From IMG/VR virus record IMGVR_UViG_2609460125_000009: 64,000 bases of DNA. One strand, 5' to 3'. A program made the translations under genes and the position numbers. Positions 1,092-16,322 of the stretch are shown here, piece after piece; the stretch's first letter is position 1; each line of letters begins with the position of its first letter. Origin of the DNA: a virus (taxonomy: Duplodnaviria > Heunggongvirae > Uroviricota > Caudoviricetes). The notes beneath the pieces are model-generated. The model did not search any database, was not told the DNA's origin, and was given only the letters and a program-made list of their open reading frames with translations.

Positions 1092-1669
1092 TTCATGTGC
1101 AGCTTGGCGGCCCTATGGCCAAACATTTTGGCCGCCACTGGCATCTAAAGGTGCGTAATACAAAACAGGCTCTGGATTTAATTGAGGCCAACAAGCCTGG
1201 GTTTAAAGCATGGATGAAGCGCAATATCAAAACCTATGACAGATACCACATCCAGATCACCAATAAACAGGGCCACAAGTGGTCTGTGGACGAGAGTGAA
1301 TATCAGATGATGGGGCAGTCTGACAATATTGCAAAAATCCGCATTACCCCTGTTCCGCGAGGAAGTGGTGGATCTGCTTTTGGATGGTTTCAGACGGTTG
1401 TTGGAGCAGTATTAATGGTTGCCTCGATATGGGTGCCCGCTCTTGCGCCTCTCGGTTTGTCACTGATGATGGGCGGTATAGCACAAATCATATCTCCGCA
1501 AGCCACTAACGAAAGTGTGAGGCAGGCGGATAACTCGAACTCTTATTACTTTGATGGACCTCAAAACACAACAAACCAGGGGAACCCTGTACAGCTTATC
1601 TATGGCGAGGAAATTTTAGTTGGCTCACAGGTCGTGAGTTCTTCTATCACCATCGACCAGCTTATGTAA
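1079..1669 (+). CDS. tail assembly protein I-like
   Basis: GTG start overlapping the end of the K-like gene; about 196 aa with a hydrophobic C-terminal half; synteny K-I-J as in lambda. Confidence 0.6.
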   Translation: MSELVHVQLGGPMAKHFGRHWHLKVRNTKQALDLIEANKPGFKAWMKRNIKTYDRYHIQITNKQGHKWSVDESEYQMMGQSDNIAKIRITPVPRGSGGSAFGWFQTVVGAVLMVASIWVPALAPLGLSLMMGGIAQIISPQATNESVRQADNSNSYYFDGPQNTTNQGNPVQLIYGEEILVGSQVVSSSITIDQLM

Positions 1670-1680
1670 TCAAGGATTTT

Positions 1681-4600
1681 TTGGACATGGAACAGTTCAA
1701 GAAGAAAAAATTACCGCTTCTTATTGCCGGTGCTGGTGGCAAGAAAAGTAAAAGCTCCAGCCGTACCCCGGTTGAAGCTGATGATACTGTCAATTCTCGT
1801 GCTATGGCAGCCATCCTCGACCTTCTTGGCGAGGGGGTTATCGGTGGCCTGGTAAATGGCGCAAAGTCGATCTTCATCGACGATTTACCGATCTTGAATG
1901 AAGATGGCTCTTCCAACTTCAGCGGTATTACATGGGATTTTCGTGACGGCTCACAAGATCAGACGCCAATGGCTGGTTTTGATTTTGTCGAAACGCCTAA
2001 GTCCGTAAATATTCAGCTTAAAAAAACACACGACGTTACGGTTTCAATCGATAACGATGAAGCTGATCGCGTTCGTGTCATCATGAAATTCCCCTCTTTA
2101 CGTAGCGTTGATAAAAGCTCTGGCGATACAAATGGCACTACGGTGAAGTACAAATTCCAGATCGCCAACGCAGACGCAACATTTTCTGATGTAGTGGCAG
2201 AAGGTGAGAAAAGCGTTGATATCACGCTAACGGCAAAGAAAACCGGCGTGTATTACCGTAGCTATGAGCTGAAACTGCCTAAGCCTGGTCGTGCATACAA
2301 GGTTAGGGTGATTCGTCTTACAGATGATAATAGTAGCCAGTACCTCTACAACGACACATGGGTTGATTCCATCGGTGAGATTGTCGACACGCCAATGAAC
2401 TACCCTAACTCTGCTCTTGTTGGCTTGAAGGTCAATTCAGAGCAGTTTGGTAGCACAATGCCTTCCCGTTCGTATTTGGTGCGCGGTATCAAAATCCGAG
2501 TACCGTCAAACTACAACGAATACACCAATACTTATGTCGGCGTATGGGACGGTACTTTTAAGCTGTTGTCTTCTTCAAACCCTGCGTGGATTCTCTACGA
2601 TTTGCTTACCAATACTCGGTATGGTCTTGGGCAATTTGTGTCGGAATCCATGATTGACCTCGGCCAGCTCTACCAGATTGGTCGATATTGTGACGAAGAG
2701 GTCGATGATGGCTTTGGGGGTAAAGAGAAACGCTTTGCAATCAATACGCAGATCACCAGTCGACAAGACGCATACCGATTAATTCAGGATATTGCCGGTG
2801 CATTCCGCGGCATGGTGTTTTGGGCTGGTGGCATGGTTAACATCATGCAGGATAGCCCATCAGATCCGGTAATGATGTTTACCAACTCCAACGTCAAAGA
2901 TGGACTGTTTACCTATAAAGGTTCTGCGCGTAAAGATCGCCCATCCGTTGCGCTCGTAACCTACAACAACAAGGAGGACGGTTATAAGCAAAACATCGAA
3001 TACGTTGAAGATCAGGACGCAATGCGCCGTTATGGTGAGCGTAAAACAGAAGTCGTAGCATTTGGATGTACAAGCCGAGGCCAGGCTCACCGAGTTGGTT
3101 TGTGGCTTTTGTATACCGCCAGAATGGAGTCGGATGTAATTACATTTACTGCCGGCTTAGACGCCTCATTTCTGATGCCTGGTGAAACCGTTCTGATTCA
3201 GAACAAATATCGTGCAGGTAAACGTAACTCCGGTCGAATTGTGGAGTTTACCAAAAACAGCATCACTCTCGATGCGCCTGTGTCGTTAGCTAAAAGTGGC
3301 AGCTTTATTCGGATATTGAATCAGGAAGGCAAAATCGTTGAACGCGATGTTCTTGAAACTGGCGAAAACATAACAAAGGTTACGTTTTCAAAAGCCCTGT
3401 CGTCAGCGGAAACGCCTGTTTTGAACGGTGTCTGGACAATTACAGAACCAGATCTCGAACCTATGCGCGTTCGCATCGTTAACATCGCGCAGGGGGAAAC
3501 GCCGGGTAGCTTTGACATCACCGCTGTTGAGAACAATCCGTCTAAATATGAGGCAATCGACAATGGCGCAACGCTGATCCCGCAGAATACGACGGTATTG
3601 GACCCAACTTACTCCAAGCCATCTAATCTGCAAATCACTGAAGGGACTTATCTCTCAAGCCCGGGCAACCTGTCAGTAAAACTGACTGCAACATGGGAAG
3701 GAAAATCTCCAGAGTATTGGATCAGTTGGCGACGTTCTGATGAAAACAATGTATCGAACTGGCAATCGGCGCGTGTAACCGAAGAGCAATACGAAATCGT
3801 TAATGTCGCGGAGAATGGACACTACGACTTCCAACTGTATGCGGTTTCATTCAACGGTAAAAAAACAGAGATTATCAGTACCGTTTATCAGGTGTTGGGC
3901 ACAATGACACCGCCGGATGCCCCAACGTCATTAACGGCCGTTGGAGACTATCGTAATGTGATACTGAATTGGGTTAATCCAGATTCGGTAGACCTTGATC
4001 ACATTAATGTTTACGCATCCCAGACCAACAATCTGGATACGGCGAAACTGATCGCAGAGTCTGCAAGCACCACCTTTACACATGCTGGTCTTGGGGATAG
4101 CGAAACGTGGTATTACTGGGTTCGAGCATCGAACAAGCGAGGTATGTTAAGCCCTCCGAACTCAAACTTGGGTACAGAGGCGACAACTCGCGATGTACTG
4201 TCGTTCCTGGCTGGCAAAATTACATCTTCCGAGCTTGGTCAGGCTCTGCTTGAGGACATCAACAGCAAAGCCTCTCAAGAAGCAGTTGACGAGTTAAATG
4301 AGCATATCAACCAGAGCGTCGAATCTTTGGAGGGGGCGGTAAACGACGTTAAGGAAGATATAGCTGAATTAGATAAGCAGTTCAGCGATAACCTCGCGGA
4401 TTTTGAAATAAAATTCAACGAGCGTAGCGATGCTTTGGAGAGCGCGCAAACCGAGCTTAAAGGTGAGGTTTCGGCAACGATCGACAAGGTCAATGAAGCG
4501 TTTGAAAAAATTGATGCTACTGATGCTGCAATTGTTGAAATCGAAAACACCGTATCTGAACACGATAAAGCTCTCGCTAATACAGTCGAGGCAATAAAGG

Positions 4601-11825: not shown

Positions 11826-11906
11826 TAAGTAAGTACACACCTACAACAAGAAGGTGAAATGTGATATAAATCCGCCATCCCGATTTGACTTTTCATGGAG
11901 GAAAAC

Positions 11907-12230
11907 ATGTCGAACGAGATGGCGGGCGTTACAACAGAGCAAGTTGAGCGTATTGCCGCGATCGTTGCTCGGGAGGTTGTTGGCAAATTAGGTAAAGAGC
12001 TACGTGAAGAAATTGGCCAGGAGGTCAATGATCAGCTGAAAACCTACTTTGGTGATATGACCCCGGCGCAACATAGTATTCAACACTCCAACCTGGACAA
12101 ACTCCTTAACCGGTTAGATTCCATCTCCAGTGGGTTCTTTGGCGGCATTGTTTCTAAAATAACGTCGTTCATTATTACTGCACTGCTTTTGGGGTTAGCC
12201 GCGTATGGCGTAAAAAATGGACTGCAATAA
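11907..12230 (+). CDS. membrane protein with single C-terminal transmembrane helix (holin-like position)
   Basis: ATG at 11907 preceded by GGAGGA; one C-terminal hydrophobic helix (ITSFIITALLLGLAAYGV); directly upstream of the endolysin-like gene. Confidence 0.4.
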   Translation: MSNEMAGVTTEQVERIAAIVAREVVGKLGKELREEIGQEVNDQLKTYFGDMTPAQHSIQHSNLDKLLNRLDSISSGFFGGIVSKITSFIITALLLGLAAYGVKNGLQ

Positions 12231-12243
12231 CAGGAGATCAAGG

Positions 12244-12936
12244 ATGAAGACTCCGAGAGGCATTCGTAATAATAACCCCGGTAATCTTGATAAAGGATCA
12301 CCGTGGCAAGGTCTGGTTGCGAATCCAGACGAACCGCGCTTTTGCACGTTTAAAGACCCTGTTTGGGGGATTCGTGCGCTGGCGGTGACTCTAATTACCT
12401 ACCACGACAAACGTCGCGCAAAAGACGGCTCAAGTATCGATACCATTCGTGAAGTTATTGAACGTTGGGCACCGCCGAATGAAAACAACACTGACGCCTA
12501 CATTAATGAGGTGTCTAAAGCCGTTGGTGTAACCGCAGACATGATCATCGATCTGCATGATTACGACATCCTTCGACCTTTGGTTGAGGCAATCATTCGC
12601 CACGAGAATGGTCGAGGTCCACTAAAAACGCTGAACACCTGGTATGCGGCAGAAGTTATTGAAGAAGGTCTGCGTCGAGCTGGCGTCGTTAAGCCGGTGA
12701 AAACCGTGAAGGCTGTTCCTGTAACTAAAGAAACCGCAGGCGCAACTGTCACAGCAGGTATTGGTCTGGCGCAGCTTGCCGATGTTATGCCGCAGGTTTC
12801 CGCTGCTATGGATAAAGCACAAGGTCATATCTCTAGCGGGGATACAGTACGCATCATCTTCGGTATTGCCACTATTTTTGTGGCCGGATTCATTGCCTGG
12901 TCGCAGGTAAGAAGACACCAGAAAGGGATGGTCTAA
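12244..12936 (+). CDS. putative endolysin / cell-wall hydrolase with C-terminal membrane anchor
   Basis: RBS AGGAG before the ATG; N-terminal GIRNNNPGNL motif; C-terminal hydrophobic helix (IIFGIATIFVAGFIAW); located between the holin-like ORF and the spanin-like ORFs. Enzymatic class not resolved. Confidence 0.4.
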   Translation: MKTPRGIRNNNPGNLDKGSPWQGLVANPDEPRFCTFKDPVWGIRALAVTLITYHDKRRAKDGSSIDTIREVIERWAPPNENNTDAYINEVSKAVGVTADMIIDLHDYDILRPLVEAIIRHENGRGPLKTLNTWYAAEVIEEGLRRAGVVKPVKTVKAVPVTKETAGATVTAGIGLAQLADVMPQVSAAMDKAQGHISSGDTVRIIFGIATIFVAGFIAWSQVRRHQKGMV

Positions 12937-12937
12937 T

Positions 12938-13189
12938 ATGCTAGGCAGCCTGATGACAAAGCTAAAAGTTGCTTTGATTACGCTGGCTGCCGTTCTTTTC
13001 GTTCTTGTCGGCGCTTACACGATGGGCGGAAATGCGGCGCGACGAGCAATGGAAGAGAAGGCAAAACAGGAAGACAGAAAACGACTTCAAAACACAGTGA
13101 AAGTGGTGAATGAGACGAGCAGTAAAATACGTCAGAAAGATGCTTCTGCCGTTCATCGTGAGTTGTATGATAAGTGGGTGCGTCATTAA
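12938..13189 (+). CDS. Rz-like inner-membrane spanin component
   Basis: N-terminal transmembrane helix followed by a charged coiled-coil region; overlapped by an out-of-frame lipoprotein ORF. Confidence 0.5.
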   Translation: MLGSLMTKLKVALITLAAVLFVLVGAYTMGGNAARRAMEEKAKQEDRKRLQNTVKVVNETSSKIRQKDASAVHRELYDKWVRH

Positions 13190-13325
13190 ACCACAAACAG
13201 CCAGCGTGTTGTTCTGCGATGGGGCTGAGCCTATCTATATCAGCAATAATGATGTAATGACTGAAGAAACCGAACGCCAAATCCTTTTTCACAATACGAT
13301 GGGAGAGAGGGTTTGTGGTTGGTGA
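13110..13325 (+). CDS. Rz1-like outer-membrane lipoprotein spanin component
   Basis: Begins inside the Rz-like gene in another frame; lipobox ISGC; small, with Pro and Cys residues in the mature part. Confidence 0.45.
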   Translation: MRRAVKYVRKMLLPFIVSCMISGCVIKPQTASVLFCDGAEPIYISNNDVMTEETERQILFHNTMGERVCGW

Positions 13326-13335
13326 TGTCGAAGTT

Positions 13336-13357
13336 CCCCTCAAATGAGGGGAACACA
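13336..13357. terminator. hairpin between convergent genes
   Basis: Perfect palindrome GTTCCCCTC-AAAT-GAGGGGAAC between the + strand spanin stop and the - strand toxin stop; no clean T tract. Confidence 0.35.
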
Positions 13358-13879
13358 TTATTCTTCGAACAATTTTTCGATAGATTTTGTAGGATAGAAC
13401 AAAGAACGCTCGTTGTTACCAACCAGCTGGATAAAGCCTAAACTTTTATAAAACGCCTTGGCTTTGTCATTTAACGCCTCAACGAAAAGTCCATGAATGC
13501 CTACAGCAAGAGATGCATTGTACACAACGCGCATTGCATGTGTTACAAGCATTGAGCCAAATCCTTGACCTTGAAGGGACTTGTCCAAAGCCAGCCTACC
13601 CAAAGTAACACTTGGAACATTCCGATAAGGAACCTTCTTTTGTTTGCTTCTTGAAGGTAAGGACTCCTTTTCAAAACAACTACCTGACAAAGTGTAATAT
13701 CCTAACACTTTTGGCCTTTCTTCTTGAGTGCAAAGCACATAAGCACGAAGAATTTTTCCCTCATGCTGCCTTTTTAAGTGGTTGGCTAAAAAGGCGTTTA
13801 GTGACTCTTCGCCGCAATCAAAACCGTTTAGATCATAATCTTTCTCTCCAGAGAAAATCTCTATCGTTGTATTGCTCAC
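13358..13879 (-). CDS. GNAT-family acetyltransferase toxin (TacT/KacT-like)
   Basis: 173 aa with GNAT acetyl-CoA fold motifs (QGQGFG...); immediately downstream of a DUF1778-type small ORF on the same strand. Confidence 0.75.
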   Translation of the reverse strand: MSNTTIEIFSGEKDYDLNGFDCGEESLNAFLANHLKRQHEGKILRAYVLCTQEERPKVLGYYTLSGSCFEKESLPSRSKQKKVPYRNVPSVTLGRLALDKSLQGQGFGSMLVTHAMRVVYNASLAVGIHGLFVEALNDKAKAFYKSLGFIQLVGNNERSLFYPTKSIEKLFEE

Positions 13880-13886
13880 GAGTAAA

Positions 13887-14156
13887 CTACTCCATGCTTT
13901 TCAGACGATCAGCAGCTCGTTTCAGCTTGTCGTTCGGTGCCGGAGGATTGCTTATAGCGTCCATAACCAGATTCCAGGATTCTTCATTCAGAACTAGTCT
14001 ACGGTGTTGCTCTATAACTTTCACGGCACGTTCAGATGCACTGCTAACCATAAACTGAGTAATGCTCTGGTTAGACATTGCGGCAGCTTCCTCGATGATG
14101 CTTTTATCGTCATCGGTTAATCTCAAATCGATGCGCTGCTTTTTTAGTGCTGACAT
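13887..14156 (-). CDS. DUF1778-family antitoxin (TacA/KacA-like)
   Basis: ATG at 14156 with AGGAGG upstream; product MSALKKQRIDLRLTDDDKSIIEEAA... is the typical N-terminus of DUF1778 antitoxins; ends 8 bp before the toxin start. Confidence 0.75.
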   Translation of the reverse strand: MSALKKQRIDLRLTDDDKSIIEEAAAMSNQSITQFMVSSASERAVKVIEQHRRLVLNEESWNLVMDAISNPPAPNDKLKRAADRLKSME

Positions 14157-14474
14157 GTATTCCTCCTGATGGCCGTGATGTAGGAAGGCCATCAATCTCC
14201 TCTGTTCAAACTGAGTTTTCGACTCAAAAATTACTTTAAAAGGCTATAGCCCATTACGTGTGCATTATCAAATTGTGTACGGCATAACACCGTACTTGTA
14301 ATATAGAGGTCATTGTTACTTTTTTCAACAGACAAATACAAGCTATGATTGCCAATTGTTAATCACAACCTACCATTTAACCTTTACACCGCAGCCGTAG
14401 GCATTTAGGCTATATCACATATAAGAAAACAAGTTGTTTCAGACGATAATTATATACGCAAAGGGAACTCTCCA

Positions 14475-15143
14475 ATGACCAAGATCTTTGTGGTTGGCGG
14501 CACAAAGGGCGGGCCTGGCAAATCCACCCTTGCCCAGCAAATTGCCGTTTGCCTTAAAGTCAAAAAGAAGAAGAAGGTTTATATCACTGATATAGATATT
14601 CAGCGCACGACAACAAGCTGGTGTGAAGACCGTCGACAGAACGAAGACCTTGAGCTGATTCCTTTTGCATACGTTCAGGATGACATCATTAAGCACCTAA
14701 AATCGCTTCAGGGTAGAGCTGAGTATGTAGTGGTAGATGCTGGTGGCTTCGACTCCGAAATTCAGCGACAAGCGATGCTGATGGCTGACGTTATCATTAT
14801 CCCGCTGCGTCCTAAGCGTCGTGATTTGAAATCTTTACGTGACATCGATCCTATTATCGACAATGTTCGCAATGTAAACGATAAAGTGAAGGTCCGCGCG
14901 GTCATGAACCAGTGCCCGGCTTTGCCATCACAAGTGTCTCGCATTCTGGCGGCTAAAGAGATTGTTGAGACGTTTGGAATCGAGTCTGCGCCAGTCAATC
15001 TGTATAACCGCAACGTCTATGATGATGCGGAAGAGTCTGGTCGTTCTATCTTTGAAATGACCGGTAGCGAGCGCGACAAAAAGGCGGAAGCCGAGTTTGA
15101 AGAATTTGTAGATTATCTGTTGAGTCTGGAGGAAGAAGAATAA
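14475..15143 (+). CDS. parA: ParA-family partition ATPase (small type Ib)
   Basis: Deviant Walker A GGTKGGPGKST near the N-terminus; 222 aa; followed by an overlapping small ORF. Confidence 0.85.
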   Translation: MTKIFVVGGTKGGPGKSTLAQQIAVCLKVKKKKKVYITDIDIQRTTTSWCEDRRQNEDLELIPFAYVQDDIIKHLKSLQGRAEYVVVDAGGFDSEIQRQAMLMADVIIIPLRPKRRDLKSLRDIDPIIDNVRNVNDKVKVRAVMNQCPALPSQVSRILAAKEIVETFGIESAPVNLYNRNVYDDAEESGRSIFEMTGSERDKKAEAEFEEFVDYLLSLEEEE

Positions 15144-15502
15144 TGTCCATGAAAATGGGTGACCTAGCAAAGCGCAAAGAGCCTGATGCACCGGCTAAGA
15201 ACACAACTCCTTTGCGCCAACCAGTCAGACCACAGGGACGCCCGACTCGTGGCAAAGAGAAAATTAAAAGCCGCACAATGTCACTGGAGGACGAATACTT
15301 CGAACTGCTGGAGATGATGAAGTTCATCCCTCGCTTCGAGAAGTTCACTCGTTCTGACGTGATTCGAGCAGCCATTTTCCATCTGGCAGAGAAGTCACCG
15401 CAGGAAATCGAGGACATCGTGAAATTGAATGAGGCGATCACCGCTGCCGATGTCACGATGCGTACCGATGAAATCAAACGAGAGTTGATGAAGAAAGGTT
15501 AA
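15143..15502 (+). CDS. ParG/ParB-like small centromere-binding protein (ribbon-helix-helix)
   Basis: Start overlaps the parA stop (TAATG); basic N-terminus and a C-terminal RHH-like segment. Confidence 0.55.
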   Translation: MSMKMGDLAKRKEPDAPAKNTTPLRQPVRPQGRPTRGKEKIKSRTMSLEDEYFELLEMMKFIPRFEKFTRSDVIRAAIFHLAEKSPQEIEDIVKLNEAITAADVTMRTDEIKRELMKKG

Positions 15503-15554: not shown

Positions 15555-16322
15555 TTATGCCGCGCTAACACTATGTTCAGTCCTAACCACCCCAACCTTC
15601 ACAAAAGGGCTACCGTAGCTTGGTGGCTTCTTGATTAATTTGCCTACATACAGTTTTCTAATATGCTCATCGGCTATTCTGCCAACAAATTCATAACGTT
15701 TTGTGTCGGGGCCAAGAGCTATATCCCTTGTAAAGTACTGCTGAGAACCGGCTTTGACCCAGCATTCAATCTGATAAACTTCCATTATCAGCCCACCATA
15801 TGTAGCGTAGGCATATTTGAGATTCTCGTCTCTTGGAACCTTTGCCCATACGCCACGCGTAGCTTCATATAATGCCAGAGCGGACATTCCTGACTTGTAG
15901 GTGCTGTTTAGCAGGAAGGCAAGACCGGCGTGCTCAGGAGCAATTTCAGTTTCCTCTTGCAGCACTAAGTGATGGTAGGCGTCCAGTGATATTCTGCCCA
16001 TCATGGAACCACTTCCTCGTACCTTATTCGTAAGCTCTCCGACCCCCATAAGGTCGATGCATGTCGCCTCAACAAGTTTGGCTGTGGTTTCATCCATACC
16101 ATGACGAAGTATATCTATGCCTAATTTTTTATTAGCCAAAAGTTCTTTGATCCGCATGGATTTGGGAGAGTCATCGGGATACTTGATGTGATCGAGACAA
16201 CGAGTCGATTTGCCTTTTCCTATGTAAAACGGTCTTTTCATCTTGTCTTCTGTATCATAGAGACAGTAAACATAGTATTTAGCCTTATCCAATGATCTCG
16301 CGTATACCGATAAATCGTCCAT
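15555..16322 (-). CDS. GIY-YIG nuclease-domain protein (T5orf172-like) with uncharacterised C-terminal domain
   Basis: N-terminal YYVYCLYD...PFYIGKGK...R...H matches the GIY-YIG core; the remaining ~170 aa have no motif I recognise. Confidence 0.6.
   Translation of the reverse strand: MDDLSVYARSLDKAKYYVYCLYDTEDKMKRPFYIGKGKSTRCLDHIKYPDDSPKSMRIKELLANKKLGIDILRHGMDETTAKLVEATCIDLMGVGELTNKVRGSGSMMGRISLDAYHHLVLQEETEIAPEHAGLAFLLNSTYKSGMSALALYEATRGVWAKVPRDENLKYAYATYGGLIMEVYQIECWVKAGSQQYFTRDIALGPDTKRYEFVGRIADEHIRKLYVGKLIKKPPSYGSPFVKVGVVRTEHSVSAA

Follow-up and report, generated by a model that had tools for sequence, protein, structure and literature searches.

What is a small two-gene operon doing between the lysis genes and the partition genes of an SSU5-like phage-plasmid, and does it serve the element, its host, or only itself? 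The locus lies on the minus strand of the window, by which we mean the whole 64-kb stretch of viral DNA that was analyzed. We think it probable that it is an intact, self-contained type II cassette of the AtaRT/KacAT kind, sitting in a variable slot of the phage-plasmid, acetylating tRNA, and most likely acting as an addiction module.

A preliminary description of this DNA had proposed an operon in which the antitoxin gene precedes the toxin gene, and the ORF list bears this out: both reading frames are present, 89 and 173 aa long, with the toxin gene directly downstream of the antitoxin gene. The antitoxin gene (13887..14156, minus strand) encodes a ribbon-helix-helix protein of the DUF1778/TacA1 type from an ATG, with a Shine-Dalgarno sequence, AGGAGG (14167..14162), 5 nt 5' of the start codon. 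The GNAT toxin gene (13358..13879, minus strand), an AtaT/KacT paralogue, starts with GTG. The two genes had been placed 8 bp apart, but counting from the antitoxin stop codon TAG (13889..13887) to the toxin GTG (13879) gives a spacer of 7 nt, tttactc. A longer antitoxin of 101-102 aa, begun at TTG 14195 or ATG 14192 and used in the record of phage Cyrano, is unlikely, because alleles with 90% identity have a 1-nt leader indel that breaks that frame, and because the alignments of the 89-aa form with AtaR and with KacA start at its first residue.

Both ORFs are genuine genes under strong purifying selection rather than chance reading frames; dN/dS against alleles that are 90-97% identical in DNA is 0.06-0.15 for the toxin and ~0.04 for the antitoxin. 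The toxin protein is identical to CYRAN_26 (WP_000072677.1) and the antitoxin protein to WP_001351987.1. One toxin allele, WP_024173399.1, carries G148D, four residues past the catalytic tyrosine.

We then asked to which family of GNAT toxin-antitoxin pairs the module belongs. The antitoxin scores 90.7 bits in the Pfam family TacA1/DUF1778 (PF08681; cut-off 21), over profile positions 1-79 of 80, and the toxin scores above threshold against the GNAT families PF13508 and PF00583 (33.6 and 33.0 bits). Among solved structures, the toxin aligns without gaps to AtaT (6gts) over residues 1-172 with 69.8% identity and 269 bits, and to KacT (5zgn_C) with 255 bits. The antitoxin aligns over its full length to KacA (143.9 bits, 80.5% identity) and to AtaR (139.8 bits, 76.1% identity). 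Identities of 70-80% to solved structures settle the fold and the family and, by homology, the module belongs to the AtaRT/KacAT subclade (GNAT clade A). PDB chains of more distant GNAT toxins, presumably with the TacT structures of Salmonella among them at 48-75 bits, reach 48-81 bits with the toxin, compared with 269 for AtaT, and this rules out Salmonella TacAT sensu stricto (clade D) as the nearest kin. Thus, the earlier label of a TacAT-like GNAT/DUF1778 module holds at the level of the superfamily, to which the Pfam matches attest, but not as a statement of closest relationship, since AtaRT and KacAT score far higher. The distinction matters for the expected targets: AtaT and KacT, in clade A, have a broad tRNA range, while TacT and GmvT, in clade D, act almost exclusively on Gly-tRNA (PMC9177977). 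Labeling the module AtaRT/KacAT instead of TacAT therefore makes its predicted tRNA targets broad and not Gly-only.

The state of the active site had been named beforehand as a check on the toxin, and on alignment it is not degenerate. Tyr144 of the toxin falls at the position of the catalytic Y144 in AtaT, the acetyl-CoA motif (Q/R-x-x-G-x-G/A) reads Q103-G-Q-G106-F-G108, with the acetyl-CoA glycine G108 kept, and Y85, L27, and R95 are likewise conserved. Active-site and tRNA-contact residues of functional importance have been mapped in AtaT (PMC7595197); beyond the five just named, the toxin keeps F30, H34, R37, S76, S78, K79, K81, K82, and L136, among them the acceptor-stem contacts S76, S78, and K79. 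Of the tRNA contacts tested, nearly all are intact. Four probed AtaT residues are altered (A26S, R40E, R71K, and K77R), so the exact tRNA range of this toxin could depart from that of AtaT. Of these, K77R is conservative and falls among the acceptor-stem contact residues of helix alpha3, which read S76-R77-S78-K79 here and S76-K77-S78-K79 in AtaT, a stretch that is not conserved outside the AtaT/KacT clade (PMC7595197). The antitoxin keeps R8, D10, and R12, the operator-reading residues of KacA (PMC6698736).

The sequence upstream of the antitoxin gene suggests how the pair may be controlled. The best consensus match of the region to a sigma-70 promoter (10/12 positions; 14300..14328, minus strand) is a consensus prediction that consists of a -35 hexamer TTGAAA (14328..14323), a 17-nt spacer, and a -10 hexamer TATATT (14305..14300), and both hexamers are conserved in the alleles of 90-97% identity. 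A predicted operator, the palindrome GTACGG-N7-CCGTAC at 14277..14295, starts 5 nt past the -10 and would thus span the transcription start, as the kacAT operator does (PMC6698736). Its half-sites and 7-nt spacing match the operator used for KacAT crystallization, AAATGTACGGTTATTAACCGTACATGA (PMC6698736), and recur upstream of O157 ataR and of another plasmid paralogue. Searched for across the 64-kb window with up to one mismatch, the operator occurs once, where 0.02 matches would be expected. All alleles have the same half-sites, and the spacer between them varies. We infer that this palindrome would be bound by the antitoxin or by the toxin-antitoxin complex.

Between the operator and the antitoxin start codon lies a 5' leader of ~120 nt (14157..14276, minus strand). 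It contains a local hairpin abutting the Shine-Dalgarno sequence, an inverted repeat with fully (100%) complementary 8-nt arms (14194..14187 and 14174..14167); both arms are kept in divergent alleles, and covariation gave the hairpin no support. We rejected the idea of a structured regulatory RNA across the leader, as the whole-leader fold was no better than that of shuffled sequence (z = -0.05). At the other end of the locus, a GC-rich hairpin (13333..13354) stands where the Rz1 and toxin genes converge. The terminator scan gives it a stem of 9 bp, 6 of them G-C, and a T-rich tail on the plus strand only, so that it is terminator-like on that strand. It lies inside the cassette-specific DNA and is kept in pTIC, described below.

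The surroundings of the pair agree with the position first given for it, between the lysis cassette and the partition genes. On one side, PHROG matches identify a holin-like gene, an endolysin, Rz, and Rz1 (11895..13325, plus strand), and on the other side stands ParA (14475..15143), followed by a small partner ORF (15143..15502). The window is homologous to SSU5, PhiR41_1, and pJN2-26 up to 13317-13326 and again from 14365-14368, and these edges delimit a swappable cassette of ~1.04 kb (13327..14364) comprising hairpin, toxin, antitoxin, leader, operator, and promoter. SSU5, PhiR41_1, and pJN2-26 hold unrelated genes in the slot between Rz1 and parA, and a search of those genes against Pfam and PADLOC gave no match. 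In pTIC, an aac(6')-Ib-cr cassette has taken the place of the toxin and of the antitoxin's C-terminal part, and the replicon is retained.

Near-identical copies of the cassette occur in 152 of about 254-264 E. coli complete genomes that have the phage-plasmid backbone (~58-60%), in every case on a plasmid (152/152). A query with the cassette alone matched 145 PLSDB plasmids, 140 of which come from Escherichia; 131 of the 145 records are non-mobilizable and, among the matches listed, the plasmids are mostly ~105-125 kb. Given that so limited a share of the E. coli genomes that have this parAB backbone also have the cassette, and that SSU5, PhiR41_1, and pJN2-26 have other genes in its slot, we conclude that the cassette is dispensable for the lineage. 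Its boundaries and its predicted promoter and operator are now defined, and among the SSU5-like phage-plasmids of E. coli it ranks as a shell element.

The cassette itself is real, ordinary, and already known, and is already annotated in public records. It is protein-identical in phage Cyrano (pLF82), where the annotation reads "KacT acetyltransferase-type toxin," and it was listed in 2023 as a lysogen-expressed "moron" of Cyrano/pLF82 (PMC9928086). In Cyrano lysogens, the toxin was expressed 35-fold and the antitoxin 60-fold over the prophage background, the element was present at 5.5 copies per cell, and virions were made (PMC9928086). The record of this close relative also has hicAB annotated, so any stabilizing effect of the cassette may be redundant. 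Comparison with Cyrano additionally gave no support for a tie of the toxin to the tRNA genes that the element itself carries, as the tRNA-Tyr gene is absent from Cyrano despite the identical cassette.

How would such a module work? That it acetylates charged tRNAs, the generic mechanism first suggested for it, holds by homology to AtaT and KacT: 70% identity to AtaT, together with the conserved residues, leads us to expect that free toxin would transfer acetyl groups from acetyl-CoA to the alpha-amino group of aminoacyl-tRNAs, thereby blocking translation. The substrates would be those of AtaT and KacT, a broad Gly/Trp/Tyr/Phe/Met set. By analogy, the C-terminal half of the antitoxin would wrap and inhibit the toxin in a T2A4 heterohexamer, and the complex would repress its own promoter via the palindrome, with an excess of toxin leading to derepression (conditional cooperativity). 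Both the T2A4 heterohexamer and ratio-dependent autoregulation have been demonstrated for KacAT and AtaRT (PMC6698736).

We next considered what such a toxin would do for the phage-plasmid. The cassette adjoins parA on a low-copy, vertically inherited, extrachromosomal replicon, as is typical of addiction modules. Because its neighbor is parAB, the prophage that carries it is extrachromosomal and low-copy, and lysogens express it, we regard addiction as its most likely role, although this is less certain than the family and the mechanism: cells that lose the phage-plasmid would be arrested by the toxin, and the cassette would at the same time be selfish, preserving itself. There is precedent for such a role: in Shigella, vertical transmission of pINV, a large low-copy plasmid, is promoted by a GNAT/RHH pair, GmvAT (PMC6519299), and the persistent genes of phage-plasmid P1 include the pair phd/doc (PMC7969092). 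We found no published toxicity or neutralization test of this AtaRT paralogue in the literature. If the module does stabilize phage-plasmids, it would help to explain the persistence of SSU5-like elements, a matter of applied interest given that these can carry resistance genes, as pTIC does.

A bolder version of this role would tie the cassette to its chromosomal relative, which is found in ~30% of E. coli complete genomes. The two could form a cross-talking network, in which AtaR represses and/or neutralizes the phage-plasmid toxin (anti-addiction), or the reverse. Cross-talk with AtaR is conceivable given the same operator half-sites, the same DNA-reading residues, and antitoxins that are 76% identical. 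If AtaR cross-neutralized the toxin, addiction would be blunted in ataRT-bearing hosts, and host genotype would decide whether the phage-plasmid is addictive. The distribution of the two loci, taken from a chimeric megablast query, gave no signal of avoidance or enrichment: cassette and chromosomal ataRT occur together in 50 of the 152 carrier genomes, against 45.5 expected by chance, a statistic that ignores phylogeny. The alternative to this proposal is that the cassette would be the first DUF1778-GNAT pair in phage exclusion, an idea suggested by its place in an accessory hotspot beside a homologue of the defense gene PD-T4-3. We hold this pair of proposals to be unlikely. Whether AtaRT cross-regulates or cross-neutralizes the phage-plasmid copy is nevertheless the question here with some reach; otherwise, the locus offers little beyond bookkeeping.

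Phage exclusion also deserves consideration in its own right. An incoming phage might free the toxin, either by shutting down transcription in the host or by setting off decay of the antitoxin; the toxin would then acetylate aminoacyl-tRNAs, stop phage protein synthesis, and shield lysogens and the phage-plasmid from competitors, by abortive infection or superinfection exclusion. The homologue of PD-T4-3 is a 255-aa GIY-YIG ORF (15555..16322; E = 1.3e-23) that lies ~1.4 kb away, and Cyrano has a different gene (DUF2971) at its position, both of which accord with an accessory hotspot, although proximity to a single defense gene is weak evidence. Expression in the lysogen also fits, and tRNAs are known as targets of bacterial immune systems (PMC12409363). 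However, a search of both proteins against the 5027 PADLOC models (PADLOC-DB v2, 2023 catalogue; E <= 0.01) gave no match, an absence compatible with a defense role, a full-text literature search turned up no DUF1778-GNAT pair reported as phage-protective, and adjacency to parAB fits maintenance equally well. We consider this reading distinctly improbable. Of the two roles first suggested, post-segregational killing and phage exclusion, both are plausible, and the circumstantial evidence favors addiction.

It could also be that the benefit falls to the host, with stochastic or stress-induced toxin yielding non-growing, antibiotic- or macrophage-tolerant cells and thus raising host survival. 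The adherent-invasive strain AIEC LF82, which survives in macrophages, carries the protein-identical cassette, overproduced KacT halts growth and induces antibiotic tolerance (PMC9431474), and TacT promotes non-growing Salmonella in macrophages (reviewed in PMC11205521). These homologue phenotypes, however, depend on overexpression, and the carrier plasmids come from dog, pig, poultry, soil, and human sources with no pathotype link, and we judge such a role, argued by analogy, to be very unlikely. Least probable is that the cassette is a purely selfish hitchhiker, without effect on phage-plasmid or host, that selects at its own level against its loss and is possibly decaying or attenuated in some lineages, a view to which its intermediate frequency, the replacement in pTIC, and G148D in WP_024173399.1 lend some color, but which sits badly with ORFs, promoter hexamers, and operator half-sites that are all intact in the window and with dN/dS values (0.04-0.15) that indicate ongoing selection on protein function.

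The addiction cassette that we favor is best understood next to systems already described. AtaRT of E. coli O157:H7 (PDB 6GTS, 6AJM, and 6GTQ) has the same gene order, short spacer, and operator half-sites. However, AtaRT is chromosomal, between livJ and panM, while the cassette is on a phage-plasmid; DNA identity between the two is only ~66%; and the ataRT palindrome precedes the start codon of ataR by ~25 nt, compared with a leader of ~120 nt here. KacAT of Klebsiella pneumoniae (PDB 5ZGN and 5XUN) has its operator architecture and R8, D10, and R12 in common with the cassette, but differs in host genus and replicon. In the toxin-binding sites, Q70 and R77 of KacA are replaced by N70 and K77, as in AtaR. 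The T2A4 heterohexamer and conditional cooperativity, demonstrated for KacAT, would apply to the cassette by extension. TacAT of Salmonella and GmvAT of Shigella pINV belong to the same superfamily, pairing a DUF1778/TacA1 antitoxin with a GNAT toxin that acetylates aminoacyl-tRNA, yet they fall in clade D and their toxins show much weaker similarity to that of the cassette. Phd-Doc, the plasmid addiction module of P1, is likewise a type II toxin-antitoxin pair on a phage-plasmid, although its protein families and toxin chemistry are unrelated. Whereas Phd-Doc is persistent in the P1 group (PMC7969092), within the SSU5-like lineage the cassette ranks as a shell element.

The toxin-antitoxin cassette spotted in the preliminary description is real, intact, and well conserved, and the clade of which it is an ordinary member has been characterized both structurally and biochemically. 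Both minus-strand open reading frames (ORFs) lie exactly where they had been placed: the antitoxin gene (13887..14156; 89 aa, ATG start), with a Shine-Dalgarno sequence, AGGAGG, on the same strand 5 nt upstream of its start (14167..14162), and the toxin gene (13358..13879; 173 aa, GTG start). The gap between them, which had been given as 8 bp, is 7 nt (tttactc, from the antitoxin stop codon to the toxin GTG). The module does sit between lysis and partition genes. Upstream are plus-strand genes with PHROG lysis/endolysin matches, encoding a holin-like protein (11895..12230), an endolysin (12217..12936), Rz (12938..13189), and Rz1 (ending at 13325). Downstream are a ParA gene (14475..15143; NCBIfam ParA_partition, E = 2e-33, under the model's curated cut-off) and a 119-aa plus-strand partner ORF (15143..15502), which overlaps the parA stop and occupies the parB/centromere-binding-protein position. 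The record of Escherichia phage Cyrano, the plasmid of AIEC strain LF82, names the partner 'RelE/ParE putative toxin'; since it has no Pfam match at E <= 0.01 and matches only a PHROG family of unknown function, that label looks unsupported.

A predicted promoter, the best sigma-70-like site in the region, has a -35 TTGAAA (14328..14323) and a -10 TATATT (14305..14300) separated by a 17-nt spacer, and five bases downstream of the -10 lies a predicted operator, GTACGG-TGTTATG-CCGTAC (14295..14277), all on the minus strand. The 27-bp operator co-crystallized with KacAT (AAATGTACGGTTATTAACCGTACATGA) has identical half-sites and 7-nt spacing, as do the regions upstream of O157 ataR (spacer TGACATA) and of a further plasmid paralogue (spacer TATTTTT). 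A single copy of this pattern is present in the 64-kb window; 0.02 would be expected with at most one mismatch. Both promoter hexamers and both half-sites are unchanged in alleles of 90-97% identity while the operator spacer differs (TAAATTG, TGATATG), as would be expected of a functional operator. Binding at this site, the start point of transcription, and regulation by the toxin-antitoxin ratio are predicted from KacAT and AtaRT. The plasmid paralogue with this GTACGG-N7-CCGTAC operator is a GNAT/DUF1778 module on E. coli p98201-contig_1 (1487..2440 of the retrieved sequence; ~68% DNA identity to the window's cassette) that adjoins a RepB gene and a decayed vapBC, so E. coli has at least three paralogous modules with these half-sites in common. 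Within the leader of ~120 nt, a conserved 8-bp hairpin adjoins the Shine-Dalgarno sequence; the whole leader folds no better than shuffled sequence. A 1-nt leader indel in the 90% alleles shifts an upstream ATG (14192) out of frame, which supports ATG 14156 as the probable true antitoxin start.

Homology to the related phage-plasmids SSU5, PhiR41_1, and pJN2-26 ends at 13317-13326 and restarts at 14365-14368, which puts the swappable unit at ~13327..14364, comprising a hairpin, both genes, the leader, the operator, and the promoter. In these relatives, the slot between Rz1 and parA holds unrelated one- or two-gene inserts (SSU5, L003 1981..3137; PhiR41_1, L004 1964..3139; pJN2-26, L005 1826..2383; positions are those of the retrieved sequences) that have no match in Pfam or PADLOC and are candidates for unknown accessory or defense functions. 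At the cassette's right-hand boundary, upstream of parA, a 20-bp near-palindrome (TGATTGCCAATTG / CAATTGTTAATCA; 14346..14365) overlaps two predicted plus-strand promoter-like sites and is not kept in the 90% alleles; it may serve as an operator for par or mark a recombination junction. In the SSU5-like pTIC (MF554642.1), an aac(6')-Ib-cr cassette stands in place of the toxin gene and of the antitoxin's C-terminal part, starting at the toxin stop codon (L012 1532..2223, corresponding to 13361..14049 of the window). The plasmid keeps the promoter/operator, an RHH stub of 37 aa, and the hairpin downstream, and the toxin-antitoxin promoter may therefore drive the resistance gene.

Over the 1.2-kb region, identity to Cyrano (OV696614; LF82 plasmid, NC_011917) is 99.9%, and both proteins are identical to their counterparts there. 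The module is already known: the Cyrano record annotates CYRAN_26 as 'KacT Acetyltransferase-type toxin' and CYRAN_27 as 'putative antitoxin', and the literature mentions this copy. RefSeq uses GNAT family N-acetyltransferase and DUF1778 or TacA-family antitoxin. Misson et al. (2023; PMC9928086) counted both genes among the Cyrano morons and reported toxin and antitoxin transcripts 35-fold and 60-fold over prophage background in LB, 5.5 copies per cell, virion production, and 39-fold induction by ciprofloxacin. Our literature search found no functional test of the module. According to a 2024 review citing TADB 3.0, the LF82 plasmid has no toxin-antitoxin systems (PMC11205521); our analysis and the Cyrano annotation contradict this, and because the plasmid carries the protein-identical cassette and an annotated hicAB, the TADB 3.0 entry is a database gap. 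A cassette-only query of PLSDB returned 145 plasmids, in identity bands of >=99%, 95-99%, and 90-95% (140 from Escherichia, 131 non-mobilizable); those listed were mostly about 105-125 kb. Among 5,426 complete E. coli genomes, 152 carry the cassette, plasmid-borne every time, and 254-264 carry the adjoining parA/partner backbone. The cassette is thus a shell element present in about 58-60% of the backbone lineage, which agrees with the general assignment of toxin-antitoxin systems to the SSU5 supergroup's shell genome (PMC7969092).

Close homologues allow the molecular mechanism to be proposed with high confidence: the toxin would acetylate aminoacyl-tRNAs with acetyl-CoA, the antitoxin would neutralize it through its C-terminal half, and the complex would repress its own promoter via the palindrome. 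Less certain is the module's biological role. We favor addiction through post-segregational arrest, given that the cassette lies beside parAB on a low-copy extrachromosomal prophage, that it has its own lysogeny-active promoter, and that GmvAT of Shigella pINV (PMC6519299) and phd/doc of P1 (PMC7969092) provide precedents. Against addiction, the cassette is dispensable for the lineage, hicAB is also annotated in Cyrano, and chromosomal ataRT, with the same operator half-sites, occurs in 50 of the 152 carrier genomes (one third; 45.5 expected), where it might cross-repress or cross-neutralize the phage-plasmid module.

About 1.4 kb from the cassette, a 255-aa minus-strand GIY-YIG ORF (15555..16322) matches PD-T4-3 (PADLOC E = 1.3e-23) and Pfam LEM-3_GIY-YIG. 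PD-T4-3 is a single-gene anti-phage system. In Cyrano/pLF82, parA and its partner are followed at this position by a plus-strand DUF2971 gene, so this is a second variable accessory slot. For a defense role of the cassette itself, this neighbor is the only, contextual, support; the databases and literature searched offer none, and we consider the role unlikely. Persistence, to which the overexpression phenotypes of homologues point, is unlikely as well. Cross-talk with chromosomal AtaRT and defense are the only readings with some novelty, and neither is supported yet. The element also carries a plus-strand cluster (24295..24992) of tRNA-Asn(GTT), tRNA-Tyr(GTA), tRNA-Thr(TGT), and tRNA-Ser(TGA), of which the Cyrano annotation has Asn, Thr, and Ser but no Tyr. 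In vivo, AtaT acts on Tyr-tRNA and, weakly, on Asn-tRNA (PMC7595197); the presence of the tRNA-Tyr gene does not track that of the cassette, so a tie between it and the toxin is unsupported.

Low dN/dS values show that both genes are maintained as proteins: against alleles of ~97%, 92%, and 91% DNA identity, they were 0.146, 0.083, and 0.060 for the toxin and ~0.04 for the antitoxin. One toxin allele of the ~97% group (WP_024173399.1; L009 3030..3551 and L013 130..651 of the retrieved sequences), found in at least two plasmids, AnCo1 among them, carries G148D, four residues past the catalytic Tyr144 and inside the conserved YKSLGF motif. In E. albertii, a sister allele retains G148, and the G148D allele may be an attenuated variant.

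Pfam places the antitoxin in TacA1/DUF1778 (90.7 bits; cut-off 21), and several GNAT families give above-threshold scores for the toxin. Among solved structures, the toxin scores 269 bits against AtaT of E. coli O157:H7 (6GTS; residues 1-172 aligned gap-free) and 255 bits against KacT of Klebsiella pneumoniae (5ZGN_C), versus only 48-81 bits for other, more distant GNAT-toxin chains, which we take to include the Salmonella TacT structures. The label 'TacAT-like' thus stands at the superfamily level but is imprecise, as the module falls in the AtaRT/KacAT clade. Full-length antitoxin alignments score 143.9 bits with KacA and 139.8 bits with AtaR. Computed identities are 69.8% with AtaT for the toxin, and 76.1% with AtaR and 80.5% with KacA for the antitoxin; KacT and AtaT are 67% identical (PMC6698736). 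Together, these scores and identities make the module a third clade member, roughly equidistant from both characterized ones.

We mapped the residues whose mutation lowered AtaT toxicity (PMC7595197) on the gapless toxin alignment. A degenerate active site, which the preliminary description had named as grounds for rejecting its reading, is not what the alignment shows: the catalytic Y144 and G108 in the acetyl-CoA motif (QGQGFG) are kept, as are Y85, R95, L27, F30, H34, R37, and L136. So too are S76, S78, K79, K81, and K82, which contact the acceptor stem. Given the changes from AtaT (A26S, R40E, R71K, and K77R), the tRNA range could differ somewhat. The antitoxin keeps R8, D10, and R12, all three of the residues through which the operator is read in the crystal structure of KacAT with DNA (PMC6698736). 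The subfamily distinction matters for the expected tRNA range: the basal clade A, which holds AtaT and KacT, acetylates Gly-tRNA and several aminoacyl-tRNAs with hydrophobic residues, whereas clade D, which holds TacT and GmvT, is almost exclusively Gly-tRNA specific (Bikmetov et al., PMC9177977).
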